This document shows positions 4,418 through 38,563 of a stretch of 64,000 nt of DNA, in pieces. The stretch is taken from the NCBI GenBank assembly GCA_964488055.1, contig CAZATL010000003.1:245-64244 (forward strand). Direction: 5' to 3'. The stretch's first letter is position 1. Every line of letters begins with the position of its first letter. The position numbers were made by a program, and so were the translations under genes. Origin of the DNA: an uncultured Gammaproteobacteria bacterium. GTDB taxonomy: Bacteria; Patescibacteriota; Microgenomatia; UBA1406; GWC2-37-13. The notes under the pieces were generated by a model. It did not search any database. It had not been told where the DNA came from and was given only the letters and a program-made list of their open reading frames with translations.

Positions 4418-4933
4418 ATGCTTATACAAAGATTCAGATATATCTTCGTTGTCTCGGTTCTGATCATTGGCGCGCTCTTCTTGCTCGGGAAGACCAGATA
4501 TATCATAAACCCTATGTCAAGATATGTGCTTCGCAGTACATACATCGCTACCCTCAAAAGTGATAATAAAATTGACGCAGAAAAATTTTGGGAGTTCAGG
4601 GACTTTTACTTTGCAGACACATCCACATTCAAGCATGATAATGTGGGGGGTGATAAACCATTTTTGATATTATCAAATGGTGCGATACAAAGTCTTGATT
4701 TTCTAGTATTGCCAAACTCACCTCTAGCTAATAAATTTGTAATACCAAACGGCGTAAAGATCATTCTACAATCACAGAATGAAGTGGTGTATGAAGACGG
4801 GAAAAGAACCATCATTAGATTCACAAAGGAAATGCCCGAGATGCAAAAAGTGAATGGTTTTTTCAGTTATTTTGGGGTAGATCTCAAAAAATTTGACAAT
4901 TACCTCTGGTACAACGAGACAACTATCTATTAG
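4418..4933 (+). CDS. Hypothetical N-terminally anchored protein
   Basis: The ATG at 4418 gives MLIQRFRYIFVVSVLIIGALFLLGK (signal-anchor) plus a roughly 140-aa soluble part. The longer tracked ORF start at 4298 overlaps the divergent upstream gene. No motif was recognised. Confidence 0.5.
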   Translation: MLIQRFRYIFVVSVLIIGALFLLGKTRYIINPMSRYVLRSTYIATLKSDNKIDAEKFWEFRDFYFADTSTFKHDNVGGDKPFLILSNGAIQSLDFLVLPNSPLANKFVIPNGVKIILQSQNEVVYEDGKRTIIRFTKEMPEMQKVNGFFSYFGVDLKKFDNYLWYNETTIY

Positions 4934-4946
4934 TAAAAGTGCAAAG

Positions 4947-6602
4947 ATGAGATCAATAAGTCTTCATTTGAAAAACTCCAAATATCTTATTCCTAGTGTG
5001 TTGCTTTTCCTTTGTTTAGCGTCACTACTACTTCATTTATACAAGGCGGGTGATCTATGTCTAAATGAAGATGAGGCAGCCCAGGGATACAATACTTATT
5101 CGGTGTTACAAACAGGTAAGGACGAATATGGCAAACTCCCAATCAGATATCTCTCATTTGGCGAAAACAAACTCCCACTAACTGGACTACTTTCAGCACC
5201 ATTTATTTATTTCATAGGACTTAGTGACATAAGCGTTAGATTACCTGTTTACATAATCGGGACAATATTTCCATTGCTTTTTTACTTTGCCACATACTCA
5301 CTTACGAAAAATAAGTCAGTTGCACTTTGTGCAGCATTTTTTTCTACATCGAACTTTTGGCTCCAAGCAACTAGTCGTCACCAGCACGAGGCTGTTGTAC
5401 TATCTGCAATAGTTCTGCTATATATCACCATTCTCTTCTCGAGAAAGACACTCACAAAAAAGTATTTCACGATACTATCGTCGCTCACATTTCTTGGATT
5501 TTATACTTATCATAGTGCCAAGATAATCATTCCTTCCCTTACTGTATTTACAGTATTGTACGTATTTGCCAAAGAGAAATTGGCAATATCCGAGAACCTA
5601 AAGTCTGCACTCTTGGTAGCAGCCATACTATCGATTGGCATAGTGATGTTTGCCTCTACAGAATTTCTGGTGCCAAATAACAGACTGGGGAATCTCTCAT
5701 ATTTTACACACCCAGTTTTCATCCACGAGATTGAAGAAGGTAGAAGACTTGGTGGGTCGCCACTCTTTTACAACAAAGCGGTCTACGGAACTTATAAGCT
5801 TGCCACGAGATCACTCGGCTATCTCTCACCACAGTACCTACTTATAAACTCTGACCCAAACCCAAGATATGGATCTTCATATTTGCCACTTCTATCGATT
5901 GTTGAATACATTTTATTCTTGGTTGGGATAATTATTTCGTGTGTCCAAATCTATTACAAAAGATCGCTTAGCACCAACTTGTTTCTCCATTATTTTATTA
6001 TCATTTCTATTCTCCCTGCATCGCTCGCGCTACCTGTTGGCTCATCAACGAGGAGCTACCTGCTCCTAATTCCAACTATCATACTTACATCACAAGCAGT
6101 TATACATATTTCGAATCACGTGAAAAGATTGGTTTCAAATAAGTATTTTGCTTACTTATTTGTGTTTGTGGTCTTGGCAGTTCACACCTGTTTGGCAGCA
6201 ACTACCTGGGGCAAGTATTTCAATGAATATTTGAGCAACCCAAAGACAAGTATTGCCTGGCAATGCGGCATGAAGCAGGTTGCCAAATATGCCTGGGAAA
6301 ACTACGGTGAGTATGACAAGATAAATATAGCAAGTACCATGGGTCAACCATACATTTTTTTGCTTTTCTATGGTGGTCCATATCCTCCGAGTGAGTACCA
6401 AAAAGTATCAAAGGTTATGCCATACAATACTTACGGATTTTGGGAGCAAGAGACATTCGACAGGTTTACTTTCGCCAAAAGTGCGATATGCGATCCAGAG
6501 GGTAGAACCCTAAACATTACAAATAACAAAGCACTTCTTGGCGCAATAAATATTAACCTTCAAAAATTATCACATGGCTTTTATGCTTTCAGTTGCAAGT
6601 AA
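4947..6602 (+). CDS. GT-C glycosyltransferase, ArnT/PMT (GT39/GT83)-like
   Basis: It is polytopic. The first extracytoplasmic loop carries the acidic motif NEDEAAQGYNTYSVLQTGKDEYGKLP, followed by RLPVYIIGTIFPLLFY. It is a paralog of the next gene. The ATG at 4947 lies just after the upstream stop. Confidence 0.75.
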   Translation: MRSISLHLKNSKYLIPSVLLFLCLASLLLHLYKAGDLCLNEDEAAQGYNTYSVLQTGKDEYGKLPIRYLSFGENKLPLTGLLSAPFIYFIGLSDISVRLPVYIIGTIFPLLFYFATYSLTKNKSVALCAAFFSTSNFWLQATSRHQHEAVVLSAIVLLYITILFSRKTLTKKYFTILSSLTFLGFYTYHSAKIIIPSLTVFTVLYVFAKEKLAISENLKSALLVAAILSIGIVMFASTEFLVPNNRLGNLSYFTHPVFIHEIEEGRRLGGSPLFYNKAVYGTYKLATRSLGYLSPQYLLINSDPNPRYGSSYLPLLSIVEYILFLVGIIISCVQIYYKRSLSTNLFLHYFIIISILPASLALPVGSSTRSYLLLIPTIILTSQAVIHISNHVKRLVSNKYFAYLFVFVVLAVHTCLAATTWGKYFNEYLSNPKTSIAWQCGMKQVAKYAWENYGEYDKINIASTMGQPYIFLLFYGGPYPPSEYQKVSKVMPYNTYGFWEQETFDRFTFAKSAICDPEGRTLNITNNKALLGAININLQKLSHGFYAFSCK

Positions 6603-8322
6603 GCTGGCCAAAGATTATAAAACAGGATTTGTTAAGTATAGTCTTGTTGTCATTGTGGTTGTGATGTCTGCTGTAATAAGGTTACACAAAATTGACACTG
6701 CACCATATGGCACACTAGTTGACGAGGCAAGCTATGGTTATATTGCATACTCTTTGTCAGAAACCGGCAAAGATGAACTTGGAAATGCGCTTCCATTTAG
6801 CTTCAAAGCGTTTGGCGACTACAAGATGCCAGTGTATGCCTATACTTTGGTACCTACCATAAGACTTTTTGGTCTTTCAAATCTATCAGTTAGGTTGCCT
6901 TCTGTGGTCTCCGGGGTGCTTATTACATACCTTACTTATTTCATTCTTAGGAAATTACACCTCGGATTCAGTACTTCGATATTATCAACGCTTATTGTTG
7001 CTTTTTCTCCATGGAGCATTTTGTTGAGTAGGTTTGCCTTCGAATCAAATGTTGCTTTGTTTTTGTTTATGGCTTCCATAGCGTGCTTCGTTTCATACCT
7101 GCAGTCAAGGAACAAATACTTACTAATACTTTCTTCGATATTGCTTGGGTTTACTTGGTATACATATATAGCGTACAGGATGGCGACTATTGGCATCGTG
7201 GTTGCAACTTCAATTTATTTGATTGCAAGCAAGCGCATTACTAGAAGAAGTGTGATTTTATTTATTGCGACCTTCATATTAGTCATTTTGCCACTCATGC
7301 CGACAATATTTTCCTCAAGTGGCACAGCAAGGTTCAGTCAGATCGGACTTTTCTCGAATGAATCGATAGTAAGCGAGATTAGCGAGTTTCGAGGATTGTG
7401 CTACAAGGATTGGCCGAGAGTTGTGTGCAATGTAATAGTCAATAGACCTGTGGCCTGGATAGGATCCATACTACAGAATCTTTTCTCATCTTTATCACTT
7501 GAATTTTTGTTCCTAAGTGGAGATAAGGGTTTGCTTTATTTGACAGTGTCAAACTATGGTGCATTTTTATTGCCGACTATTGTATTGTACTTTGCTGGAA
7601 TCGTAGCGCTTTTTGGTAAGGATAGAAACAAGTCAAGTATCATTTTGTTTGTTTCACTTGTTTTTTTAGCTCTCATCCCTTCGGCACTTGTCGGATTGCC
7701 ACAAAAGGTTAGGCTCTCTCCTTTCTTTCCTTTTGCGATCTTTTTGTTTGCGATGGGATACGAACAAATAATGATATTCCTACATAGGTTTGGCACAAGA
7801 GCAAAAAATGCTTTTACATTAGTGTACGGTGTGATTATTTGCACTCTGGGACTTATATATAGCCTGAACATGACATATGTCCATTTCGTAAAATTCTCAC
7901 AAGAGTATGCAGGACCATTGAGAGGAGCCATAGTTGAAGCAAACTCCAAATACAAAAATATTGACACTTATTTTGCATCAGATCTACACGATGCAATAAT
8001 TCATTATGCTTTTTATACAAAAATAAGTCCAGCAAGCTATCAAAAATTTGCCAAATATAGTGTGCCAGACAGTGGCGACTTCTCACACCCTATAAGTTAT
8101 AAAAATGTGCATATGCAGTCAATCTCTGTCAAAGACATATATTGCATGCAAAAGAATACTGGTAAGGATTTTGTTTTTATTACAACGAAAAATCTTGAAT
8201 TAAGCGGTGAATCTCTCTATCCACCAGTATATAAGTATTTGTCACATGACAAAAACTCGTCACTAATGTATATATATTATTTTGACCATAAAAACGACAT
8301 AAAATGTAACAAAGTTTTGTAG
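6574..8322 (+). CDS. GT-C glycosyltransferase, ArnT/PMT-like (paralog of 4947-6602)
   Basis: VDEASYGYIAYSLSETGKDELGNALPFSFKAFGDYKMPVY and RLPSVVSGVLITYLTYF align with the upstream gene. It is polytopic and overlaps the upstream gene by 29 nt. The start could be 6574 or 6583. Confidence 0.75.
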   Translation: MAFMLSVASKLAKDYKTGFVKYSLVVIVVVMSAVIRLHKIDTAPYGTLVDEASYGYIAYSLSETGKDELGNALPFSFKAFGDYKMPVYAYTLVPTIRLFGLSNLSVRLPSVVSGVLITYLTYFILRKLHLGFSTSILSTLIVAFSPWSILLSRFAFESNVALFLFMASIACFVSYLQSRNKYLLILSSILLGFTWYTYIAYRMATIGIVVATSIYLIASKRITRRSVILFIATFILVILPLMPTIFSSSGTARFSQIGLFSNESIVSEISEFRGLCYKDWPRVVCNVIVNRPVAWIGSILQNLFSSLSLEFLFLSGDKGLLYLTVSNYGAFLLPTIVLYFAGIVALFGKDRNKSSIILFVSLVFLALIPSALVGLPQKVRLSPFFPFAIFLFAMGYEQIMIFLHRFGTRAKNAFTLVYGVIICTLGLIYSLNMTYVHFVKFSQEYAGPLRGAIVEANSKYKNIDTYFASDLHDAIIHYAFYTKISPASYQKFAKYSVPDSGDFSHPISYKNVHMQSISVKDIYCMQKNTGKDFVFITTKNLELSGESLYPPVYKYLSHDKNSSLMYIYYFDHKNDIKCNKVL

Positions 8323-8334
8323 ATAGAATAACTT

Positions 8335-10017
8335 ATGAAAAAGTTTTATCCCAATATTTATAAGATCTTACTTATTGTCGCTGGCATTGTCCTAAATCTT
8401 CTTTTTATCATCCCAAGCATCAAATGGGGATGTGAGGCGAATATTTGTGGGCTGTGGATGGGAGAATGGCATTATCACGATGCGCTATGGCATATTGCCG
8501 TATCACGAGTGTCATTTGAGTCGTTCCCGTTTGTGTATCCTTCCGCATCGGGATTTACACTCACATCATATAACTACCTCTTGGGATTAATCTTACATAT
8601 GCTCGAGATTGTTAAAATCGATTCATTCATTTCATATTTTTATTTGCTTCCAATTATCTCCAATTTGCTATTTGCATGTGCAATATTTCGATATTTGAGT
8701 TTAACCAAGAAAACTGTATCGCAGTCAATATGGATAATATTTTTCACGTACTTTTGCGGCTCTTTCTCATATTTTCTAATCTTTTATAATCAAACTATCG
8801 CTGATTACAGCATTCTTAAGGGGTTTCCAGTCGCCACTACTCTTCAACCAAGTTTCGTACTCTCAAATATTCAATTTTTTATTTCTCTTGCTGTATTTGT
8901 ATATATATTTACTGATATTGTCACAAAGAAATTAGATAAGAAAATGATGCTGATTCACGCTTTTCTTATTACAATTAGTATCGGACTAAAGATGTATACA
9001 AGCATGCTAACTTTGCTTGTAGTCTTCATTGGAGCCGCAGTTTGGTTCGCCAAAGGTCAAAAAATGATAAGTTGTATGTATCTACTCTCAATTTTTGGAT
9101 TTTCAGCTTTTGCTTATTTGGGTTTTTATTTGCCATATGAGTCATACATAAATGGCTTGCCTTTTGCTTTTTATCCACTATCAATTCCACATGTTCTGAC
9201 CGAGTCTCAAAACCTTTTTTACAATAAAGAATTCACTCTTGGAAGATACTACATGATAGGCTTGAATAAGCTGTCTCCACGACTTGTAATGTACGAGCTA
9301 ATTAGCGCAATTATTTTTGTGGTAATTAATTTGGGCACGAGAATACTTTTTCCACTATATTTTATTAAATCTAGACTTAATCTGGAAAATGTGATATTGC
9401 TTGCCGTGAGTCTGACCGGGTTTATTATTCCGATATTTTATATCCAGAAAAGTGGCGGATGGTACAACTCCATCCAGTTCGCTTATTTGAGCATATACAC
9501 AACTGGAATCTTGTCTGCTCTCTTACTAGACAGGATGATAAATGCGAAAAAAAAAGCCTTGAAAATCACCGCAATACTCTTTGCCATTGTCATTATAGTT
9601 TTGTCGCTACCTAATACGATATTTACTCTCAATTTTCTGGTAAAAGATAAAATTCTGATAAGTCAGTCAGAGCTTGATGCATTGTCATTTTTGGCCAGCC
9701 AACAAAATGGCATTGTACTTTCTTTACCCGATGGCAAAAATTCGTCCTACGTGCCTGCACTGTCGCGTAAGATAAGCTATCTCATAGACGACGAACAAGC
9801 AGCACTACTAAACTTGCCCACATCTGATAGAAGGGAGAGAATAGATAAAAGGGACTGTAGCATTTTGAGTGAAATTGACTATATATACCTTAATAACGAA
9901 CACGGACAGGAGTTTTCAAGATGTGGTCAAGTGAAAAAGCAGTTTAGATTAACTTACAAAATTGGAGGGGTAGTAATATTCTCAAGGCTCCAATCTGGAA
10001 TACAAACTCACGAGTGA
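8335..10017 (+). CDS. Polytopic membrane protein, unassigned family B (paralog 1 of 3), GT-C-like
   Basis: The N-terminal loop reads C-x3-C-G...HYHDALWHIAVSRVSFESFPFVYPSASGFTLTSYNYLL. An internal motif GGWYNSIQF is present. The C-terminal soluble block reads SELDALSFL...GIVLSLP...SYVPALSRKISYL. All three blocks are shared with 9982-11715 and 14098-15852. Confidence 0.7.
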   Translation: MKKFYPNIYKILLIVAGIVLNLLFIIPSIKWGCEANICGLWMGEWHYHDALWHIAVSRVSFESFPFVYPSASGFTLTSYNYLLGLILHMLEIVKIDSFISYFYLLPIISNLLFACAIFRYLSLTKKTVSQSIWIIFFTYFCGSFSYFLIFYNQTIADYSILKGFPVATTLQPSFVLSNIQFFISLAVFVYIFTDIVTKKLDKKMMLIHAFLITISIGLKMYTSMLTLLVVFIGAAVWFAKGQKMISCMYLLSIFGFSAFAYLGFYLPYESYINGLPFAFYPLSIPHVLTESQNLFYNKEFTLGRYYMIGLNKLSPRLVMYELISAIIFVVINLGTRILFPLYFIKSRLNLENVILLAVSLTGFIIPIFYIQKSGGWYNSIQFAYLSIYTTGILSALLLDRMINAKKKALKITAILFAIVIIVLSLPNTIFTLNFLVKDKILISQSELDALSFLASQQNGIVLSLPDGKNSSYVPALSRKISYLIDDEQAALLNLPTSDRRERIDKRDCSILSEIDYIYLNNEHGQEFSRCGQVKKQFRLTYKIGGVVIFSRLQSGIQTHE

Positions 10018-11715
10018 ATTGTCTTCAACAAGAGTGAAAGTTTCCAATAACTTAATACAATCGTGATATCTTTGATAAGAATCTACATTTTTCTTCAGAT
10101 ATATGTATCTTATCTTGCTATCAATATTGCAGTCTTGGAGTAACTGTAGTGTCTCGAGCCTCTTTTTGTAGTCGACGTTCAGAAGCTCAAGTTGTTTGAT
10201 ATCAGCAAAATATACCTGTTTACGAGAAATTGCCGTGACATAAGCGGTGTCATACATCTCAGACAAAATGCCGGCTCTATCTTTCTCAAATGGTTGTGTC
10301 AGGACTATGCCGTCTGGCATATTCTTGAGTTTTTCAAGCACGACGAGTTCACTGTCTAGTATCACACTAGACCCTCCCAATGCGAATGTTCTTACAAGAT
10401 CTACCTGCGCTGGTATAAATGCCAAAAATGATGCCATTATAAGAATAATGGCTAAAGGTCTGATTTTGTGCCAAGCAAGATATATTGTTTCTGCCAAAAG
10501 CAAATTACCAAAAATAAATCCGAAATACATAAACTGTATTGTGTTCCACCAGTCTCCACTTTGAATAAAAAGTATTGGCATGAGAGAACAAAATAATACG
10601 ATTACTGTCCACACAAATGCGTGAAAAGATATATGGCTCTTTCTTGACACAACATAATAAAATGATGCAACAATTCCAAGCAGCCTCATGCCGTAATTGA
10701 AAAAAAGAAAATATCCAATTATCTGCGCACACACCCAGATCAGTTTTGGCCCTATGCTGCCAGATGAGCTAAGCGGATACCATAGACTCACAAGATCAGG
10801 CATATGCCACATGTTTGGATCCTCAATCATTTGCTTTGGTATCGCAATCGGGTCGAAGAATATCCCACCATTTGAGTTTCCAGAATAAAAAATAATATAT
10901 GCTATGGCCAAGGCAATAAATGACGAAAGAGTGGTGATTAACGCGTTTTTCCAATCTTTCTTGAAAAGATACAAGACTGTATACGACCCGACAATTATCA
11001 CAAGCGGTATGACTGCGTATATTTTTAGTCCGGCTATGAGAAAAACAAGTGCCAAAACGTAAATTTTGTTTTTCTTTTTGAACAAGATGTATGCTAAAAG
11101 CAAAAGTAAAGCTATGCTCCACATGAATTGTGGATTGGTCATACTAAGCGCGCTCTGCATGGTAGGATTGCCAGATGAGCCCCACACATTTCCATTTTTG
11201 AAATATTGAATAATAAATCCAAATGAAGATGCAAAAAACATCACAAAAAACACAAGTATTGTGTATGTCTTATCTTTGCGGATGGATTGCGAGTAGAGAT
11301 ACAAGATTGTAGAAAAGAACACAAACCAGACCGTAGGCTGAATCCTGAAGTACAAATCCCACGCAGTAAAACCGAGGAGAGTGAATATCCAGAGAACAAT
11401 ATCAAGTAGGAAATTGTATCCTGACAGGCTGGCCCCGGAGAATGTGGGAAAAATAAATGGTATTTGTCGAAATGAACTGTTTATCAGTGCCACGTGCCAT
11501 ATGCCATCATGCTCATGAGCCCCCCAGAGATGCATCCCGCACACGCCTTCAATACACCTCACCATTCCAGAAGGCCAGATTACCACCATATGGAGGACGA
11601 AGGCAGCAGCAACGATGATAACAAGCAGCCAGTTTCTTTTGATACAATCAAACAGTTCCAAATATGGTTTTTTACTTAGCACGTAGCACTTAGCACTTAG
11701 CACTTTTTTCATCAT
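9982..11715 (-). CDS. Polytopic membrane protein, unassigned family B (paralog 2 of 3)
   Basis: It carries CIEGVCGMHLWGAHEHDGIWHVALINSSFRQIPFIFPTFSGASLSGYNFLL, GDWWNTIQF and AYVTAISRKQVYF. Its 3' end overlaps the convergent paralog by 36 nt. The start could be ATG 11715 or an internal TTG at 11661. Confidence 0.7.
   Translation of the reverse strand: MMKKVLSAKCYVLSKKPYLELFDCIKRNWLLVIIVAAAFVLHMVVIWPSGMVRCIEGVCGMHLWGAHEHDGIWHVALINSSFRQIPFIFPTFSGASLSGYNFLLDIVLWIFTLLGFTAWDLYFRIQPTVWFVFFSTILYLYSQSIRKDKTYTILVFFVMFFASSFGFIIQYFKNGNVWGSSGNPTMQSALSMTNPQFMWSIALLLLLAYILFKKKNKIYVLALVFLIAGLKIYAVIPLVIIVGSYTVLYLFKKDWKNALITTLSSFIALAIAYIIFYSGNSNGGIFFDPIAIPKQMIEDPNMWHMPDLVSLWYPLSSSGSIGPKLIWVCAQIIGYFLFFNYGMRLLGIVASFYYVVSRKSHISFHAFVWTVIVLFCSLMPILFIQSGDWWNTIQFMYFGFIFGNLLLAETIYLAWHKIRPLAIILIMASFLAFIPAQVDLVRTFALGGSSVILDSELVVLEKLKNMPDGIVLTQPFEKDRAGILSEMYDTAYVTAISRKQVYFADIKQLELLNVDYKKRLETLQLLQDCNIDSKIRYIYLKKNVDSYQRYHDCIKLLETFTLVEDNSLVSLYSRLEP
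11674..11704. repeat. Tandem heptamer array, ACTTAGC x4 (one copy ACGTAGC)
   Basis: The sequence reads acttagc acgtagc acttagc acttagc act. It lies at the extreme 5' end of the minus-strand gene, or in its leader if TTG 11661 is the true start. Confidence 0.9.
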
Positions 11716-12538
11716 GCTTGCAATTATAACTGTTGTGTATAGAAATTACGAAATATTACATGACTTCATAGAGTCGCTGGCAAGTCAGACATCATCCTCA
11801 TACAAAGTCTATTTTGTCGACGTCACAGAACCTGACAAAAGAGAGATAATTCCTTGGATCAGAAAAATTGAGGGAAAATACGTTTTCATAGAAAGCGAAA
11901 ACAAAGGATATGCAAGCGGAGTCAATATAGGAATAACGAGCGCCCTCAAGGAGGGCCTGACCCGATTTGCCATCGTGAATCCAGATATAGTATTTGATGA
12001 AAATTTCGTTGTGCACAGCACTCAAGTCATCTCTCAACACCCAAGATGTATTGTTGGAGGAAAAATATACTACGCCAAGGGATTTGAATACCACAAAGAC
12101 AGGTATCAACCATCAGAACTAGGTCGTGTGCTTTGGTATGCAGGAGGGAAGATTGACTGGAAACACGCTGTGTGTAGCCATATAGGAGTCGACGAGGTGG
12201 ACTCTGACAAGTACTCGAAGCCGTGCAAAACTGAATTTGCATCTGGCTGTCTCATGATATATGACAAATCAGTCTATGATATCGTAGGTTCTTGGGATGA
12301 AAATTATTTCATGTACTTCGAGGATACAGATTACTGCGTCAGAGCCACGAAGAAGGGTTTGCCCATTTGGTATGATCCTGCAATCATTATTTACCACAAG
12401 AACGCCCAAAGCACAGGTGGATCAGGCTCTCTGGGGCATGTGAGGTGGATGAATAAATCGCGTATGAGATTTGGCGTAAAATATGCACCCCTTCGTACCA
12501 AAATTCATCTTCTTTGGAACTATGTCTTTGCCAAATAG
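11714..12538 (+). CDS. GT2 glycosyltransferase (rhamnosyl/galactosyl-transferase-like)
   Basis: It starts MLAIITVVYRNYEILHDFIESL, has NKGYASGVNIG, and carries the acidic motif FMYFEDTDYCVRA. It is soluble, at about 274 aa. Confidence 0.8.
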   Translation: MLAIITVVYRNYEILHDFIESLASQTSSSYKVYFVDVTEPDKREIIPWIRKIEGKYVFIESENKGYASGVNIGITSALKEGLTRFAIVNPDIVFDENFVVHSTQVISQHPRCIVGGKIYYAKGFEYHKDRYQPSELGRVLWYAGGKIDWKHAVCSHIGVDEVDSDKYSKPCKTEFASGCLMIYDKSVYDIVGSWDENYFMYFEDTDYCVRATKKGLPIWYDPAIIIYHKNAQSTGGSGSLGHVRWMNKSRMRFGVKYAPLRTKIHLLWNYVFAK

Positions 12539-14114
12539 AGAGCTTACAAAAAAACTACTATTAATGACATATAGGATTCTGCCTTGGGTGCTCGTATTTT
12601 TTATTGCCATTTTCTCTTCATATTTATATCTCAAAAAAACCGCTTCTTTTAGATTTCTTGACGAGGAAAATAATATTGTGCCTGGGTATCTAATGACCCA
12701 AGGCTTATCTTTGTATAAAGAAATTTTCATGAATCACAATCCTTTGCCTTTAGTCATTAGCCAAATCCTACAGTCAATATTTACTAGCAATACATTATTT
12801 GACCTTGTGAAGCTCCATAGAGTGTTTATGATTTTGTTTGGGCTTGTTGCAAATATCTTATTACTTGTTAGATTCAGGTCGAAAGCTCTGCTATTTGTTG
12901 GTATATATGAATATCTCCGCTTCTATATATCTGGCCAAATGTTTCTAGCAGAAGGGATGATCGCGTATATGTTCGCATATTACGTTTTGCTACTTGTTGA
13001 AACATGTATAAGTAACAAGCGTAAGATGTCTAGCATTGATACTGCGATTGCATCAATACTATTTGTGTTTATTGTTCTTTCTAGGGAACCTTACGTGCCA
13101 GTAGCATGTGTCTTATATCTACTTACATTGCTAAACGCAAAAAACACAAAAGTCGCAGTCTTGTCAATTATTTCATCAGCACTAGCAATACTTACTTTCA
13201 TGATTCAGTTTGATTTGGGGGAATTTTACAAACAGGTTGTGCTTTTGAATCAATCTTATGCACTACTTGGATCCAAAGACCAGGGAGGGCTTCAGATTTT
13301 TTCTGGGATACGCAATTTGTACGAGTATATATGGGATGCTTCCAAGCTTGATAAACCGTTATATATCATTCTAGGAACAATCAATATTACGTTATTTATT
13401 TTGCTATTTCAAAAAGCCAGAAAAATAGGGTGGAGGTCGTCTGTGCCCACAATTACTGTTGTAATTATTATTTTATTTTTAGCTGGTGTTCGCAATTTCG
13501 CATCTGGCGTAGAGTGGTTTGGAATGTATAGATCAATTCCATACATCGCTATACTCATTTCACTAGTAGCGGCGCTCGCTACCAGAAAGACGGTTTTACT
13601 AATACTAATTTTTGTTACTCTTGTTTCAGTACTTCATCCTAGGTCACACTTCCTAGAGAAAAGAGATAACGCAAACGAATACTACATCAACTACTCACCA
13701 AGTTACACAGTCGGAAATGTGATAGCTATCATATGCAAAAATGTCGCCTGTAATATGCATATAGACGGACTAGATATAAACCCTTACTTCGTGAGCAAAG
13801 TAAGACCAAGCTACAAATATGCCATATACTACCCCATAAATGATATGTACCTCGACTACAAGTCCATAAGACAGGAATCGCTAATTAGAAATAGTCCATC
13901 TGTCTATTACGACTCATCATGTGAAGTTTCTCCAAGCAAATTGCCGAGCGCAATTATCAATGACTATATCTGGCTTTACAAAAACGATAAAAAGAAGCTG
14001 ACAAAGTCGTGCATAGCCATAAACAAGATGACACTATTACCTAATATAAATATTGACCAATTGGAAGAAATTAAAAAGCATTTTTATATCATAAGAGATG
14101 AAGACGCCAATTAA
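12522..14114 (+). CDS. Polytopic membrane protein, putative GT-C (acidic DEEN first-loop motif)
   Basis: After TM1 the loop reads FLDEENNIVPGYLMTQGLSLYKEIFMNHNPLP, the same style as the DE-loops of 4947 and 6574. There are at least 9 further helices and a soluble roughly 150-aa C-terminus. ATG 12522 overlaps the upstream stop by 17 nt, so the start is uncertain. Confidence 0.6.
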   Translation: MSLPNRELTKKLLLMTYRILPWVLVFFIAIFSSYLYLKKTASFRFLDEENNIVPGYLMTQGLSLYKEIFMNHNPLPLVISQILQSIFTSNTLFDLVKLHRVFMILFGLVANILLLVRFRSKALLFVGIYEYLRFYISGQMFLAEGMIAYMFAYYVLLLVETCISNKRKMSSIDTAIASILFVFIVLSREPYVPVACVLYLLTLLNAKNTKVAVLSIISSALAILTFMIQFDLGEFYKQVVLLNQSYALLGSKDQGGLQIFSGIRNLYEYIWDASKLDKPLYIILGTINITLFILLFQKARKIGWRSSVPTITVVIIILFLAGVRNFASGVEWFGMYRSIPYIAILISLVAALATRKTVLLILIFVTLVSVLHPRSHFLEKRDNANEYYINYSPSYTVGNVIAIICKNVACNMHIDGLDINPYFVSKVRPSYKYAIYYPINDMYLDYKSIRQESLIRNSPSVYYDSSCEVSPSKLPSAIINDYIWLYKNDKKKLTKSCIAINKMTLLPNINIDQLEEIKKHFYIIRDEDAN

Positions 14115-15852
14115 ATGGATTTTGCACAACAAGGTAGAGACATTTATTTTGATATCAGGATCAATAATACTATTAAGCATTGTTATACCTTACGAAAAGT
14201 ATTATTGTCTTTTCGGACAGTGCGGGCTTTGGCTCGTAGACAAGATAAGGGCAAGAGATGATTTCTGGCAGATAGCTATAGCACAGAGTTCATTTAATAC
14301 TTGGCCGTTTGAGCTGCCAAATGCATCAGGCGTACCACTGCAGGGATATCATTACTTGTATAGTTTCATTTTGTTCTTGCTCGGCAAGATATACTTTGAC
14401 CCGATATCAGCGAACGGATTTTTGTACCCAATATTTTGGGTTGCCTGCTATTCATACCTATCCTTTGCTTTAATCAAGCTAATTAGCAAATCAGTGCTTG
14501 TTCAAAGGATTTTTTTATTTCTACAGTTCTTTGGTGGTTCTTTCGGATATTTACTCACACTCTATCACAAAAAATCGTTTCTATTTTCTGAAGGAATGAC
14601 TTATCAACCCATCCTATATCTTACCAATAAGCCTCTGTCACTTTCTGTACTACTCTTTTTGGGAATAATAATTCTCGTAATCAGAAATTACTTGAACACT
14701 GCTAGAGGTATTGTCATCTTGTCGACATTAGTCTTTCTTACTTGGGGAGCCAAATTTCATACAGGCTTTGCTATGGCAATATTTTTGGCTTCTTATGGAC
14801 TCGGCTTGTATATGACAAAGAAGATCAGCCTTCGGAAATTTATCGCAATAGGGGCAAGTTTTGTTATAGCAAGCATTTTGTCTATATTTGTATTCTATAG
14901 ACCGGATTTATCTTTTGGGTCTGGAAAGCCGCCGCTTTCCTGGGCTCCATTTTCACTTGCTCACGGAATGATCGAGTCGCCAGACATGCTCTATATGAGA
15001 TCACTTACAGACGCCAGATACTATCTCTATTCACAAAACATCTTTAGTCCTAGATTAGCTTTTATTGAGATTTTTTCGGCTATTTTATATCTATTTTTTA
15101 TGGTGGGCACAAGGTTTATTGCCGTAGTTGGAATAGCCCGAATGTTTTGGCAACGTACGCTGCCCATTATTCACGCTTCAATGGTCGCAACCATCTTAGG
15201 ACTCGGATTTATGATGCTCGGATTTGTCCAAAATGCCGATTGGTTTAATACCATGCAATTTTTTACTTTTGCCATAATTTTTCTAAATATTTACACCGCA
15301 CAGTCATTAGAAGTGATAATGAGAAAGATCGGAACTAGACGAATAATTTTTTCCTTAATAGCCATTATTTTCGTGATGCTTACTGCACCTTTTTCATTTG
15401 CAACCGTATATACAACAACGAGCATGATTCCCGTCAACGGATTAGTCATAAAAAAAGATGAACTTGAAGCCTTGAAAAAGCTTGAAGATATGCCCGGTGC
15501 AATTGTTTTCGTCCCAGAAGGCGGTCTTTTAGACAAAAATGGAGATGGATCTGATAGGACAATATGGAAACACAATGATATATCATATGTAAGTGCATTG
15601 ACGAGAAAGCAAAGCTATCTTTCTGTACAACACCAACTCTCACTACTTGGAATAAATTATGAAGAAAGAAAGAAAATTGTCAGTAATCCGAGTCTAATAA
15701 ATATTGATGCTTTTGATTCGATCGACTACTACTACTTGCCAAAAGAACACCCTCATTACAGTTTATTGAGGGGCAAAGCAGTCAAATCAAATTTATTCAG
15801 AAATGCCTTTGAAAACGAAAAGTATATTATCTATCAGAGAAAGAGATTGTGA
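14098..15852 (+). CDS. Polytopic membrane protein, unassigned family B (paralog 3 of 3)
   Basis: It carries CLFGQCGLWLVDKIRARDDFWQIAIAQSSFNTWPFELPNASGVPLQGYHYLY, ADWFNTMQF and SYVSALTRKQSYL. It overlaps the upstream gene by 17 nt. Confidence 0.7.
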   Translation: MKTPIKWILHNKVETFILISGSIILLSIVIPYEKYYCLFGQCGLWLVDKIRARDDFWQIAIAQSSFNTWPFELPNASGVPLQGYHYLYSFILFLLGKIYFDPISANGFLYPIFWVACYSYLSFALIKLISKSVLVQRIFLFLQFFGGSFGYLLTLYHKKSFLFSEGMTYQPILYLTNKPLSLSVLLFLGIIILVIRNYLNTARGIVILSTLVFLTWGAKFHTGFAMAIFLASYGLGLYMTKKISLRKFIAIGASFVIASILSIFVFYRPDLSFGSGKPPLSWAPFSLAHGMIESPDMLYMRSLTDARYYLYSQNIFSPRLAFIEIFSAILYLFFMVGTRFIAVVGIARMFWQRTLPIIHASMVATILGLGFMMLGFVQNADWFNTMQFFTFAIIFLNIYTAQSLEVIMRKIGTRRIIFSLIAIIFVMLTAPFSFATVYTTTSMIPVNGLVIKKDELEALKKLEDMPGAIVFVPEGGLLDKNGDGSDRTIWKHNDISYVSALTRKQSYLSVQHQLSLLGINYEERKKIVSNPSLINIDAFDSIDYYYLPKEHPHYSLLRGKAVKSNLFRNAFENEKYIIYQRKRL

Positions 15853-15856
15853 TTTA

Positions 15857-17308
15857 TCATTCTGACTTCTTAAGAATATATAAATCTACTTCTTGATTTA
15901 TTTTGGAACTACCTAAAATAGTATAGTCTTTCCCAAATGAAGTAAATTCCCAAGTGCTTATCTTATCAAGTGGCTTTGATTGTTTTGATAGCACAACAAG
16001 ATACTGGTTATCTTTATAGTTATCTACAGCGAGCGGTTGCACCAGACTATCGTCAAGCGACAGCAAATAACGAAGTGGCATGGCTCTGTTGTCTCGCTGC
16101 AAGTCTTGCGTAATATTCCACTTGGAATTCTGGCTCATATGCACCAACTCTCTCTTAATTACCTCAAGAGCTTTTCTCTGACTAGCGAGCCCAAAACCGT
16201 CCTGCTCATCAGGTATCTCAAAATGCTTATTAACATTTGCGAGTGCAGAGATAACAAGTAGCATCGATAGTACAAGAATATATCTTTCCTTCAATTTCAC
16301 TGAAGTAACAAAATATGCAAGCATAAGAACAAGTACTGGTAGAATACCAATGAGATAATGGCTTTGGATTATACCTCTATACAAAGTGAGGCTTGCCAGA
16401 AGTGATAAAAAACTAAAGTTATAAATATTCAAAATAGACTTATGTTTTTTTGCGTACAAAACAAAGGCAAATAAGATCACCAGGATTGTCGCTCCTCCAA
16501 GAAAAATATCTTCATACCCCAGAAGTTGTGATACAGAAGTAAAAAACTGATATAGCCTTTCAGACGCAATCTCTTTCTCTCCCCCACCACTTGTCAGATG
16601 CTTGAGTATTGCATTTGTGTTGAAGAAATTATTTCGCAATTCAAATAATACGAATGGAGAAATGCCCATCAAGGCTCCCAGAATGAAAGTGGCTGCATTT
16701 TTTACACTTTTTTGCAGCATTGCATATGCAAAGTAAAAAAATGCATATACATAAAGAAGGTAATGCGCCTGAACCAATATACCTGTTACAAATCCTGCCA
16801 GCGCCATTTGCCATAATCTTTTATCTTTATATGTGAGCAGATAAATTGTGAGTGTGGATAAAAATAGTGCAGGATATGAGTTGAACGCGGCTTTTGAGTA
16901 ATATATAAAGAGTGGCGACACAGCAAATAGTGTCGCAGCGAGCATACCTGTACTTTTTGAGCCAATTCGCTTGCCAAGTAAATATATGACAGGTATTGTG
17001 GCAAGCTGCAAAAAAATCTGGAAATAAGTGCCAGCCAGTGGATCAGATTTTAGTAAATAGAAAAATGGGATCATCAAATAGTAGATTGCGGGCCCATTAA
17101 AAAATTCACCGACGGAAGCGCGTGGGCCAAGTAGCGTGAAATCTCCATGGAGTATATTTTTCACAGCGTACGAATCAATTGCCTGATCAGATAGAAAGAT
17201 TGCATATTCATCAATTCTATGAATACGAAGCAGCGCGGCGATTATTACAATAGTTAGTACAATGATGGATTCACTTCTCAAAATATTCAAGTCAATTTTT
17301 CTTCTCAT
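15857..17308 (-). CDS. GT-C glycosyltransferase, GT39-like family C (paralog of 22279 and 23901)
   Basis: The first loop SDQAIDSYAVKNILHGDFTLLGPRASVGEFFNGPAIYY aligns with (D/E)QGRD...GP...G.FHG.WYYY in the two plus-strand paralogs. It is polytopic. ATG 17308 directly abuts the stop of the upstream gene (17310). Confidence 0.7.
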   Translation of the reverse strand: MRRKIDLNILRSESIIVLTIVIIAALLRIHRIDEYAIFLSDQAIDSYAVKNILHGDFTLLGPRASVGEFFNGPAIYYLMIPFFYLLKSDPLAGTYFQIFLQLATIPVIYLLGKRIGSKSTGMLAATLFAVSPLFIYYSKAAFNSYPALFLSTLTIYLLTYKDKRLWQMALAGFVTGILVQAHYLLYVYAFFYFAYAMLQKSVKNAATFILGALMGISPFVLFELRNNFFNTNAILKHLTSGGGEKEIASERLYQFFTSVSQLLGYEDIFLGGATILVILFAFVLYAKKHKSILNIYNFSFLSLLASLTLYRGIIQSHYLIGILPVLVLMLAYFVTSVKLKERYILVLSMLLVISALANVNKHFEIPDEQDGFGLASQRKALEVIKRELVHMSQNSKWNITQDLQRDNRAMPLRYLLSLDDSLVQPLAVDNYKDNQYLVVLSKQSKPLDKISTWEFTSFGKDYTILGSSKINQEVDLYILKKSE

Positions 17309-17309
17309 G

Positions 17310-18773
17310 CTATCTATTACTTGTTGCATAATTACCAATTAATTTACCAAAAAGCCTTGAAGCAGAGCCCATATACTGTTGATGGATCACGCCATATTTG
17401 AGATGAGCGGTTAACATATTTCTATCGGGCTTCTCATTGGTGGCTGGATTACTAATGTCTTTTAGCACTGCGGTCTGCGTTATAACTGTAAAAAATCCGA
17501 GTAAAAATATGCTCGTTGCATATATTCTGACGTTTCTTCCTGCGCTCCAGATATACTCAAGATTCTTGAGCAATATTAAGACCAGAATTGTAAGCAAAAG
17601 CGGAGTCGTGCGGAGTAGCCAGTCATTGGCAGCACCCAGTCGGGTCTGTGAGATAACACACAAAATGATAATGCACCACCAAGCTAATCTATACTCTGTC
17701 AGACTTACTTTCCTACGAATTGCGATGATTAGTGGCACAAAAATAAGAATATCTACAACCAAAAAAACTATCATGCCGATGATATTTTGAGATGTGCTTT
17801 TTTGATATGTCCAATATGAAGTCATGTGATCATTCAAGATATTTACCTGACTTTTGAAATACAAAAAAACAACCAAACCAAAAACCACACCAGCAAAAGA
17901 AGTAAAAATTGTTCTTTTGTTTACTTTGATGGGCCAAAGGAATGGAATTGATACAAGAAAAATGGAAGCCGATACAAATGGCGACCAAAGGAGACCTAGT
18001 CCTACATAAAGTAATATATTCCTAGTAATACTACTATTTTTTATGTCTACAAAAACAAGATAAGCAAAAAGCCAGGCACTTATTGCATGTTGCGGTGCCC
18101 AAGTCAACTGACTTATGAATGACGGGATTTGCAGTCCTGGTGCATATGACTCAAGATGAGTAAAGGATATTGGAATCTTCCCAAGCAGTACATTCCCTAT
18201 GATATCTATACCACTAATACCAAAAAGGATAAGCAGATACCAGACATTATTCTTACTGAATCTCATAATTCCTATGGCAAAAAGCAAAATGCCAACGCAA
18301 GTGTAAATAAAAGTAGCAATCTCTGCACTTTGCCAGTTACCGAGTAACTTGCCCACGATAGCAGGCGGTATGTAGTAAGCTAGATAATAGACAAGTGTAG
18401 TGTCGCTAACGTAAGGACCCGCGCCGTAGTTTACAGGCCAATCGTAATTTATGAGATCATTTATGATCACGTTATGCTTCGTCCAGTCTCCTCGCTGTAT
18501 CACGTATCCACCTGCTCCAGATATAACAGCCAAAAAAGTAACAAGTGTTATGGTAATCGCCAAATTTTGGGTGCTTGTGCTTGAAATAAAATGCTTGACA
18601 TAATTATCAATACCACCCCTCGTGTGCAGGTACAAGGCATAAAGAAGAAGCGCGATAAGCACTATGCTGTATGGCATCCTGACCCAGAAAAATATGAATA
18701 CAAGACAAGGAAAACTCAAGTACACCATTATCCAAGTATTTAGGGATGAAAATAATCCTTTTATATTTGACAT
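17310..18773 (-). CDS. Polytopic membrane protein (GT-C / O-antigen-polymerase-like, unassigned)
   Basis: The 487-aa product has at least 11 hydrophobic helices. One loop reads QRGDWTKHNVIINDLINYDWPVNYGAGPY. No soluble domain is evident. It is embedded in the GT-C array. Confidence 0.55.
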   Translation of the reverse strand: MSNIKGLFSSLNTWIMVYLSFPCLVFIFFWVRMPYSIVLIALLLYALYLHTRGGIDNYVKHFISSTSTQNLAITITLVTFLAVISGAGGYVIQRGDWTKHNVIINDLINYDWPVNYGAGPYVSDTTLVYYLAYYIPPAIVGKLLGNWQSAEIATFIYTCVGILLFAIGIMRFSKNNVWYLLILFGISGIDIIGNVLLGKIPISFTHLESYAPGLQIPSFISQLTWAPQHAISAWLFAYLVFVDIKNSSITRNILLYVGLGLLWSPFVSASIFLVSIPFLWPIKVNKRTIFTSFAGVVFGLVVFLYFKSQVNILNDHMTSYWTYQKSTSQNIIGMIVFLVVDILIFVPLIIAIRRKVSLTEYRLAWWCIIILCVISQTRLGAANDWLLRTTPLLLTILVLILLKNLEYIWSAGRNVRIYATSIFLLGFFTVITQTAVLKDISNPATNEKPDRNMLTAHLKYGVIHQQYMGSASRLFGKLIGNYATSNR

Positions 18774-21101: not shown

Positions 21102-22292
21102 CTATTTTTTCTTCTGTATTTTTGTCTTTTTTCTTCCCAAGAATTGCTTGAAAATATAGCAAATAATCAAAAATACAATTGTAACAGCGATACTGACATA
21201 TATTATTAAGTTTTTGAATTTGACATCCCCTCCTTGCCCCCACTCCCCCCCAAGTACATACGGATAATAGCCTAACAAAAGACCTGTGAAAAACGGCGTC
21301 AACAGAACGAAAATTGATGGGAAAAAAGGAATCATTACAAATAAGTTTAGGAAATACCATGGATGTATCTCGCCGTTTGCGACAACATATAAGACAAGCA
21401 CTGCAACTAAAGCACCAACAATCATATTTTTTAGGGTTTCTAGACCAACCTTTCTACCTAGCAAATTTACTTCGCGTTTATGATGGATGCCAAATGCCAA
21501 GAGCACTGTGGGAAGCGTCATATACTTGACAAAACCACCAAAAAGAAGACTGGTGAGTCCCCAGACTAGATTTTTCTTACTAACCAAGTAATAACCAATT
21601 ATTGCAAAAGACAAAGCTATAAAGTCATTATGACTGTTTATAAGACCCTCGACAATCACAAGTGGTGACAAAGCAAAAACTAAGGCCGACCTCTTATTAG
21701 TTTCGTGTAGACAGTACGTAGCCACAAAGTAAAGCAAAACGTTCGTGAGTTTGAAAAGAAAAAAAGTAAAAGCAAATTTTCCAAAACCCAAAAAGGAAGG
21801 GACAAGTGTGAGAAGTAAGAATGTTGGACCATATGGATATGTACGATGAGTCCAATGCATAAACCTCACCATAGGGTCAGCCGGAAAATCGAGCGCCTTA
21901 TGAAGATATGGATTTTCGCCGTAATGCGTGAATATCCTTGCATCGAAAATGTAGTTAAAAAGATCATGTGAAAGCGCTGGATAGCTCAAAAGCCCAGCAA
22001 CGATACCGACAAAAAGCACCGTTCCGACTGTTACTCTTGGTGGTCTTACTTGAATCGCAACATACGAGAGAGTAATAATTGCGACGAGAACGACGAAAAT
22101 TTGACTAGACAAAATCCTATCATGATAGCCAATACTAACCATGACTTCACGAAAGACTGTCCAGTCTGCATGTTTGACAAGTGTGAAATTGGGATCTGTG
22201 AGCACCCACGACCATAGAACAAGTCCCGACAAGCCAAACAAAAAAAGCGCAATAAAAAACTTTTGATATACTGTTGACATGAAAAGTGGCAA
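21102..22292 (-). CDS. DUF2029/GT87-like polytopic membrane glycosyltransferase
   Basis: SHDLFNYIFDARIFTHYGENPYLHKALDFPADP...THRTYPYGPTFLLL resembles the PimE/DUF2029 first-loop signature. It is polytopic. The start could be TTG 22292 or ATG 22280, and either overlaps the divergent gene's ATG at 22279. Confidence 0.65.
   Translation of the reverse strand: MPLFMSTVYQKFFIALFLFGLSGLVLWSWVLTDPNFTLVKHADWTVFREVMVSIGYHDRILSSQIFVVLVAIITLSYVAIQVRPPRVTVGTVLFVGIVAGLLSYPALSHDLFNYIFDARIFTHYGENPYLHKALDFPADPMVRFMHWTHRTYPYGPTFLLLTLVPSFLGFGKFAFTFFLFKLTNVLLYFVATYCLHETNKRSALVFALSPLVIVEGLINSHNDFIALSFAIIGYYLVSKKNLVWGLTSLLFGGFVKYMTLPTVLLAFGIHHKREVNLLGRKVGLETLKNMIVGALVAVLVLYVVANGEIHPWYFLNLFVMIPFFPSIFVLLTPFFTGLLLGYYPYVLGGEWGQGGDVKFKNLIIYVSIAVTIVFLIICYIFKQFLGRKKTKIQKKK
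22264..22272 (+). promoter_or_regulatory. Extended -10 box TGaTATACT, placed for a leaderless transcript of the 22279 gene
   Basis: TGATATACT occupies 22264-22272. The A of the ATG at 22279 is 7 nt after the last -10 base. Confidence 0.45.
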
Positions 22293-33515: not shown

Positions 33516-33599
33516 CGATCTGTATTGTACCAAGGTTGAGACAGCAAGTTGTCACTGGAATAGCTATCCCCCTTGCAAACTATACCCAGCTGTCCTACT

Positions 33600-38516: not shown

Positions 38517-38563
38517 ATGCGACCCCCTTGTCTTATAGTTGTTTTTTTGCTATCTTGTTTGTC

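Follow-up and report, generated by a model that had tools for sequence, protein, structure and literature searches.

In glycosyltransferases (GTs) of the GT-C superfamily, an extracellular loop usually bears DxD or a modified form of this motif (PMC8035078), and the superfamily keeps gaining new families without sequence similarity to existing ones, as in the case of GT136 (PMC11127046). In multi-component transmembrane glycosylation, a GT-C enzyme is combined with a GT-A enzyme and a flippase of the GtrA or Wzx type (PMC8035078, PMC11127046); the scheme with a Wzx-type flippase has been described for GacI/J/K/L (PMC8035078), and three-component systems have been described as well (PMC11127046). 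Here, we analyze a 64,000-nucleotide stretch of contig CAZATL010000003.1 (assembly GCA_964488055.1), hereafter the window, which encodes three paralogous membrane proteins, A, B and C (Table 1). The initial annotation of these proteins considered them the best candidate in the window for an undescribed enzyme family. We found that they do form a new, unnamed sequence family; it is not a new kind of enzyme, being a divergent member of the well-known GT-C superfamily, and the system is not categorically new. The nearest solved structures are those of the oligosaccharyltransferase (OST) catalytic subunits STT3, AglB and PglB (GT66), and profile comparison shows remote homology to PMT_2/ArnT-like and PTPS_related/YfhO-like proteins, which are encoded in the same gene islands and likewise combine a core of many transmembrane (TM) helices with an outside C-terminal domain.

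An unnamed sequence family with three members in the window

The initial annotation reported that the products of open reading frames (ORFs) 8335-10017, 9982-11715 and 14098-15852 align over their whole length and share a set of motifs. All three ORFs are present at these positions, the second on the minus strand, which had not been mentioned. The full-length alignment was confirmed: A aligns end-to-end with B at 28% identity over 566 columns (BLASTP, E 1e-51) and with C at 27% identity over 587 columns (E 1e-49). At the sequence level, this similarity is far above chance, the hydrophobic composition of the proteins notwithstanding, and a scan of the window with the family hidden Markov model (HMM) found A, B and C and no further member. 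The paralogs share 27-28% identity, compared to 50-55% for their orthologs in a related locus (L002), suggesting that A, B and C are old duplicates. The motifs common to the three proteins are (H/R)D..W(H/Q), SF..P..P..SG..L..Y(N/H), W.N..QF, (S/D)EL..L, YV.A(L/I)(S/T)RK..Y and Y.YL. All the motifs noted initially were thus found in each protein, except that the cysteine spacing, given as C-x3-C-G, is actually C-x4-C-G (CEANICG, CIEGVCG and CLFGQCG in A, B and C, respectively).

The statement that this combination of motifs matches no named family also holds. No Pfam-A model matched A, B, C or 22 homologs at E<=1 (HMMER), no NCBIfam model matched A, B or C, and no glycosyltransferase was found among PDB sequences with profiles of 3, 17 or 142 sequences. 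In all, sequence-level annotation was tried with single sequences and with profiles of 3, 17, 25 and 142 sequences, always with a negative outcome, and our literature search found no paper on the family, nor on GT-C or OST enzymes in bacteria of the candidate phyla radiation (CPR). A survey by Méheust et al. listed 35 mostly hypothetical families enriched in Microgenomates, 14 of which are membrane proteins (PMC6744442). The family is large. A word-indexed homolog search returned 24 proteins only, all unnamed or "hypothetical" and, where the source is named, from Woesebacteria; an exhaustive profile search with a cut-off of E<=1e-3 returned 1745 cluster representatives (50% identity), including 966 with E<=1e-30.

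For the analysis of gene context, we used 77 related loci obtained by scanning GTDB species representatives with a strict motif pattern, so that a restriction to CPR is not proven by this set. Every informative organism name among the 77 loci belongs to Microgenomates/Patescibacteria (Woese-, Roizman-, Davies- and Shapirobacteria), and the scan returned one partial match from Liptonbacteria. The family has so far been found, under this strict pattern, almost only in ultrasmall bacteria of the Microgenomates type. It should be noted that many records of metagenome-assembled genomes (MAGs) that bear the family (loci L002, L010, L042 and others) are titled "uncultured Gammaproteobacteria bacterium", and that the complete 810,692-bp chromosome OZ246419.1 is among them; one MAG is titled "Clostridia bacterium", and one member (P0180) is attributed to "Candidatus Bathyarchaeia archaeon". 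These titles are probably placeholders or wrong labels, as the genomes resemble those of CPR in size and gene content. Two or three copies of the family are present in 33 of the 77 loci.

Residue conservation was counted over 175 diverse members and confirmed in a MAFFT alignment of 142 sequences (residue numbers are those of A). Judging from these alignments, the family is defined by three features: (i) the motif HD..WH; (ii) a fully conserved Lys in the turn between TM5 and TM6; (iii) the motif Q...N..QF. The initial annotation had pointed to an invariant Asp in the first outside loop, and D49 is indeed present in 173 of 173 aligned homologs. Equally invariant are Y79, Q371 and Q381 (174/174 each) and K219 (175/175, and also 109/109 locus members). 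Next come N378 (173/175), W52 (171), N178 (170), H53 (166), F382 (165) and H48 (150, with Arg in 12 more), all out of 175. As for further acidic residues that could hold a divalent metal, such as a second DxD or a Glu in EL5, E290 of the long late loop is Glu or Asp in 123 of the 175 members and E321 is Glu in 125. The late motif proposed as W-N-x-x-QF is conserved in its N..QF core, while W376 is found in only 91 of the 175 members.

Table 1. Positions of the three paralogs, their motifs and selected neighboring genes (window coordinates)
Feature	Positions	Strand	Basis
Paralog A, 560 aa, membrane protein with predicted GT-C fold, 11 TM helices and outside C-terminal domain	8335-10017	+	AlphaFold2 model, Foldseek, family HMM (751 bits)
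Paralog B, 577 aa, same unnamed family	9982-11715	-	28% identity to A, E 1e-51
Paralog C, 584 aa, same unnamed family	14098-15852	+	27% identity to A, E 1e-49
C33-x4-C38-G39 of A, predicted beta-hairpin just after TM1, outside	8431-8451	+	DSSP
C-x4-C-G of B	11536-11556	-
C-x4-C-G of C	14206-14226	+
H48-D49-x-x-W52-H53 of A, start of first outside-loop helix, proposed catalytic Asp	8476-8493	+	Conservation, hhalign
HD..WH equivalent of B	11494-11511	-
HD..WH equivalent of C	14254-14271	+
G-L-K219-M-Y of A, one-residue outside turn between TM5 and TM6	8983-8997	+	DSSP, positive-inside analysis
K219 motif equivalent of B	11017-11031	-
K219 motif equivalent of C	14746-14760	+
Q371...W376-x-N378-x-x-Q381-F382 of A, outside loop and outer end of TM10	9445-9480	+	Conservation
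Q...N..QF equivalent of B	10531-10563	-
Q...N..QF equivalent of C	15229-15261	+
Extracytoplasmic alpha/beta C-terminal domain of A, residues ~437-560	9643-10014	+	SEL..L, YV.A..RK..Y and Y.YL motifs
Wzx-type flippase fragment	39-944
PMT_2/Agl23-like GT-C gene, first of two directly upstream of A	4893-6602	+	Pfam PMT/PMT_2, TIGR03663
PMT_2/Agl23-like GT-C gene, second of two directly upstream of A	6574-8322	+	Pfam PMT/PMT_2, TIGR03663
GT2 glycosyltransferase, cluster c3, head-to-head with B	11714-12538	+	Pfam Glycos_transf_2
Polytopic membrane protein, 543 aa, cluster c14, directly upstream of C	12483-14114	+	No Pfam/NCBIfam match

Predicted fold, topology and remote relatives

The AlphaFold2 model of A, built on a 25-sequence alignment, has a pLDDT of 88.2 and a pTM of 0.89. 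It comprises 11 TM helices, within the GT-C range of 7-13, TM5 and TM6 being the DSSP helices 202-218 and 220-239, with a first outside loop (residues 29-96) that contains helices 44-62 and 82-92 after a beta-hairpin, and a long late loop (residues 266-314). In a Foldseek comparison of this model to the PDB, ranks 1-25 were all GT-C enzymes (STT3, PglB, AglB, DPY19, AftA, ArnT, AftB and ALG3), 23 of them with E<=1e-3, probability 1.0 and TM-scores (TMq) of 0.37-0.53; the ALG3 match is weak. After rank 25, the probability falls to ~0.1, and the matches are MFS transporters and GPCRs. With the exception of DPY19 entries, ranks 1-20 are STT3, AglB or PglB, with yeast and human STT3 at E 1e-7 and TMq 0.53; for the membrane domain, the best matches to these OST subunits are 8age_A (E 1.1e-7, TMq 0.53), 3wak and 6gxc. 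The C-terminal domain, modelled alone (pLDDT 87, pTM 0.80), is best matched by the C-terminal globular domain of A. fulgidus AglB-S2 (3vu0, probability 1.0, TMq 0.54), then by that of AglB-S1 (3vgp) and by STT3. Thus, OST catalytic subunits are the nearest solved structures of both halves of the protein.

The density of Lys and Arg in the 175 sequences is 0.25-0.32 in predicted inside loops vs 0.05-0.09 in outside loops; the positive-inside rule is obeyed, indicating a topology with the N-terminus inside and the C-terminal domain outside. This topology is the same as in STT3/AglB/PglB, which also share with the family a long first loop with an acidic residue and four TM helices after the late loop. 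In this topology, D49, Y79, K219, Q371, N378 and Q381 are all placed on the outer face or at the boundary of the outer leaflet. Invariant polar residues are distributed in this way around the active sites of GT-C enzymes, where the acid of the first outside loop is, as a rule, catalytic (PMC8035078). On the strength of this model, the three proteins are predicted to adopt the GT-C class A fold. The suggestion of a GT-C enzyme in the initial annotation was therefore well directed, being supported by the model, its structural matches and the invariance of D49. Another residue considered in this context, R336, was dropped as a candidate donor-phosphate ligand, since its place in the outside-to-inside helix 315-345, ~21 residues from the start, is close to the cytoplasmic end.

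A confident match to STT3 thus exists at the level of fold, and not at the level of family. Identity to the OST subunits is ~10%, and the family has 11 TM helices, compared to 13 in STT3/AglB/PglB, with two fewer before the late loop; it carries HD in place of a DxD-type motif. The WWDYG motif is absent from all aligned family sequences, there is no motif of the DK/MI type, and neither Pfam STT3 nor the STT3/AglB C-terminal core matches A, B, C or the 22 homologs at E<=1, although genuine STT3 fragments do carry PF21436/PF22627. We also considered S-Y-V-x-A...D of the C-terminal domain as a degenerate form of WWDYG...D and rejected it as unsupported: hhalign of this domain gave 0.09% against 120 STT3 core fragments, a weak test, since the fragments, retrieved with an STT3 segment as bait, are short and of low diversity. 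Taken together, the missing WWDYG, the missing STT3 match, the 11 TM helices and the 0.09% core probability argue against membership in GT66, which we rejected.

Remote homology was found in another direction. The 175-sequence family profile was aligned by hhalign to profiles of the membrane-protein clusters that neighbor the family in the 77 loci, giving 94.1% over 406 columns for the PMT_2/Agl23-like cluster (c1), 95.0% for the PTPS_related/YfhO-like cluster (c2) and 94.7% for a third GT-C-like cluster (c6). In the alignment to c2, H48-D49 coincides with a conserved "hD" of that cluster. Deep profiles on both sides are needed for this signal; a 25-sequence profile against single neighbor sequences gave 1.9% and 0.2%. 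The probabilities of 94-95% for PMT_2-like and YfhO-like clusters indicate that the family belongs to the GT-C clan, in which it is very divergent. The family is nevertheless distinct from these relatives: neither A, B and C nor the 22 homologs have a Pfam PMT or PMT_2 match, though the neighbors 6574-8322 and 15857-17338 do, there is no HMMER-level match to the Pfam or NCBIfam models of these relatives, the motif of loop 1 is HD rather than the DE-type motif of PMT/PMT_2/ArnT, and the family has its own signatures, i.e., HD..WH, the Lys between TM5 and TM6, Q...N..QF and, in one subfamily, a hairpin with two cysteines.

Two subfamilies and the glycan-assembly island

The initial annotation proposed the paired cysteines as an extracytoplasmic disulfide or a metal site. 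Of the 175 members, 83 have both C33 and C38, 92 have neither, and none has only one of the two; members without cysteines (Cys-less) have the hairpin shortened by deletion. Accordingly, the pair is not a site of the whole family, and its all-or-none pattern marks it as a coupled feature of one subfamily, outside the conserved catalytic core. The pattern is compatible with a disulfide. In the model, the two residues are on the two strands (29-34 and 37-43) of the outside hairpin after TM1, and they most likely form a disulfide that would staple this subfamily-specific hairpin.

The two subfamilies differ in gene context. The recurrent neighbors in the 77 loci are the PMT_2-like cluster c1 (58 loci), the YfhO-like cluster (45), two types of GT2 (45 and 44) and Wzx-type flippases (43). 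Cys-less members are adjacent to Wzx in 36 of 70 cases and to the GT2 of cluster c4 in 22; in 34 cases, the flippase gene is located immediately upstream of the Cys-less member on the same strand, with a gap of no more than 15 nt or an overlap in 33. None of the 41 Cys-pair members, A, B and C included, is adjacent to Wzx. Hence the Wzx linkage is not applicable to the window genes, and we rejected it for them after the subfamilies were separated. The GT2 of cluster c3 adjoins Cys-pair members 18 times and Cys-less members never; the two genes are divergent in 16 of the 18 pairs, and the spacing is tiny or negative. Locus L002 keeps the arrangement of A(+), B(-) and GT2(+). None of the adjacent GT2 proteins was recognized as a polyprenyl-phosphate sugar synthase.

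Several homologs have additional domains. Homolog P0156 (1639 aa), grouped with the long forms described below, has in addition an N-terminally fused Wzx domain; its only source is one 8.8-kb contig, and it may be an artefact of assembly or of a frameshift. P0064 (941 aa) is a second type of fusion, between the family and another island membrane protein: its N-terminal ~370 aa resemble, by eye, cluster c12, with the motif HD(F/L)FNYLFDAKILT.YHQNPY. The window ORF 21102-22292 also belongs to c12 and is 50% identical to a member from locus L020. Homologs of ~1000-1160 aa (P0078 and P0067; loci L036, L041, L051 and L055) consist of a signal peptide, a secreted domain of ~450 aa, three TM helices and the family module, the gene order in Daviesbacteria being Wzx, long form, short form and PMT_2-like gene. 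The N-terminal secreted domain followed by three extra TM helices is consistent with the deduced topology of the module, with its N-terminus inside; this domain itself has weak similarity only, to DUF3863 (E 1.5e-3) and PDB 3lm3 (E 0.08).

In the window, the three paralogs are located in a glycan-assembly island (39-28729), which holds, in addition to the genes in Table 1, a TarA/WecG-like transferase, four GT2 genes in all, one GT4 and a PTPS_related/YfhO-like gene. The order of genes is the PMT_2/Agl23-like pair, A, B, the GT2 of cluster c3, the c14 gene, C and eight more polytopic membrane proteins, within a run of ~15 consecutive polytopic membrane-protein genes (2651-25448). A and B are convergent, and their 3' ends share 36 nt; the start of C overlaps the end of the c14 gene. 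B and the GT2 gene are head-to-head, and under the longest-ORF rule their start codons overlap in the CATG at 11713-11716, leaving no intergenic region for a promoter. The best NCBIfam match of this GT2 is the rhamnosyltransferase model TIGR01556 (E 4.6e-17, below the cut-off of the model). The c14 protein is not related to the family by hhalign (<1%), and its homologs adjoin Cys-pair members in three loci.

Further membrane proteins of the island have no Pfam or NCBIfam match (besides 12483-14114, these are 17310-18773, 21102-22292, 22279-23862 and the paralogous pair 18794-19960/19962-21095), and some of them belong to recurrent neighbor clusters (c6, c12, c14 and c16); the unmatched proteins may be further unrecognized families of the GT-C type. 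Outside the island, the window carries housekeeping genes (sigma-70, DnaG, rpoB, rpoC and EF-G). Three adjacent or nearby genes between the island and rpoB/rpoC are related to the cell surface: ORF 33573-35114 (513 aa) matches LytR_C only, at its C-terminus, with no match to the LCP catalytic domain; ORF 38528-39820 is peptidase C39-like, and ORF 39804-41681 (625 aa) has three lamin-tail (LTD) matches. No tRNA genes (ARAGORN) and no Rfam families at the gathering threshold were found in the 64 kb.

Proposed activity, competing explanations and meaning

From the paralogy of A, B and C, their fold and topology, the conserved residues and the genes around them, we infer that they are probably outward-facing GT-C glycosyltransferases, which would use a lipid-phosphate-linked sugar donor, either to assemble a surface glycan or glycoprotein or to decorate it. 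It is only the context, namely the GT2, Wzx-type flippase and TarA-like genes of the same island, that points to a lipid-linked donor. By analogy with solved GT-C enzymes, a polyprenyl-phosphate-linked sugar would be made by a GT2 at the cytoplasmic face, flipped across the membrane and bound in the outer-leaflet groove of the GT-C protein. D49 would serve as the catalytic base or as the residue that activates the acceptor; K219 would probably contact the donor phosphate, along with the cluster of Q371, N378 and Q381. The acceptor, a cell-surface glycopolymer or glycoprotein, would be held in position by the C-terminal domain together with the outside loops. A, B and C would differ in linkage or in acceptor specificity.

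The combination of a GT2, a flippase and an outward GT-C enzyme is also the logic of the systems GtrA/GtrB/Gtr*, CsbB/GtcA/YfhO, GacI/GacJ/GacK/GacL and GT136. Cys-less members conform to it, being found downstream of Wzx (34 pairs) and next to GT2 (22), whereas the Cys-pair proteins of the window have no adjacent flippase gene, and the number of GT-C-like genes in the islands far exceeds what a three-component decoration system would require. In its multiplicity of GT-C genes, the island is closer to the extracytoplasmic assembly of mycobacterial arabinan by multiple GT-C enzymes, a likeness that we offer as an analogy only.

Several observations weigh against a glycosyltransferase of this kind. 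The Foldseek TM-scores are only ~0.5, and HMMER-level searches match no known family; D49 is the sole invariant carboxylate, the usual DxD or DE pair being replaced by HD; the subfamily of the window is not adjacent to Wzx in any of its 41 members; and its GT2 neighbor resembles an ordinary soluble GT2 of the rhamnosyltransferase type.

The main alternative, an enzyme similar to OSTs or ligases, which would transfer a Wzx-flipped polyprenyl-diphosphate oligosaccharide en bloc to protein, peptidoglycan or another polymer without using WWDYG, is unlikely, even though the nearest solved structures of the whole protein are OST subunits. It draws further support from the C-terminal domain, which alone matches AglB-S2/AglB-S1 and then STT3, with no ArnT, PMT or AftA domain among the matches, from the tight coupling of Wzx upstream of Cys-less members (and the one Wzx fusion), and from the conserved neighbors, among which there is no Pfam-recognizable Wzy or ligase. 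Against it stand the absence of WWDYG and of any STT3 Pfam match at E<=1, the C-terminal core probability of 0.09%, and the 11 TM helices instead of 13. PglB holds a divalent metal through D56, D154 and E319, and the family has a single invariant carboxylate. Flippases of the Wzx type can move polyprenyl-monophosphate sugars as well, which has been proposed for GacK (PMC8035078), and the Cys-pair subfamily never adjoins Wzx. The two or three paralogs per locus fit monosaccharide transferases with different linkage specificities better. A more specific version, in which the family is a CPR-centered bacterial sister lineage of STT3/AglB that lost or never had WWDYG, the motif that reads the sequon, and acts as an en bloc ligase to a non-sequon acceptor (S-layer protein, pilin or cell wall), is slightly more doubtful still; if true, this lineage would provide the ligase or polymerase step that is missing from the Wzx-dependent pathways of Microgenomates, in which neither Wzy nor WaaL was recognized among the conserved neighbors.

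It is improbable that the proteins use the GT-C scaffold for something other than transfer, e.g., as a factor associated with the flippase or the lipid carrier, or as a scaffold of the glycan machinery. Cluster c1, to which the family aligns over the 406 columns mentioned above, weakly matches TIGR03663, "flippase activity-associated protein Agl23", and a flippase gene is closely linked to the genes of Cys-less members; however, the invariant polar and charged residues, including the acid of the first loop, cluster on the outer face as in GT-C active sites, and every solved structural neighbor is a transferase. Finally, a polymerase of the Wzy type, an O-antigen ligase of the WaaL type or an EpsG-like protein, identities that the initial annotation had named as alternatives and that would suit a polytopic protein whose locus has a Wzx-type flippase but lacks a recognizable Wzy, is very improbable: Wzy_C, EpsG and related Pfam models do not match A, B, C or the 22 homologs at E<=1, and Wzy, WaaL and SEDS structures are absent from the 50 best Foldseek matches, the first 25 of which are GT-C.

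We therefore prefer outward-facing GT-C glycosyltransferases. No new catalytic principle is revealed by the family, and yet a fold and a probable enzymatic role can now be assigned to a large group of "hypothetical proteins" (no fewer than 1745 clusters at 50% identity). The family may deserve a Pfam entry of its own and, after an activity has been demonstrated, a new CAZy GT family, for which GT136 is a precedent (PMC11127046). The family, with its two subfamilies of distinct gene context, is useful for the annotation of CPR genomes and for the study of their surface glycans. CPR bacteria, Microgenomates included, are uncultured and ultrasmall and are probably attached to hosts, and their surface is central to their biology and almost unknown. 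The presence of two or three copies of the family per locus, together with ~15 consecutive polytopic membrane proteins in the window, suggests that the extracytoplasmic assembly of surface glycans in these bacteria is unusually elaborate.

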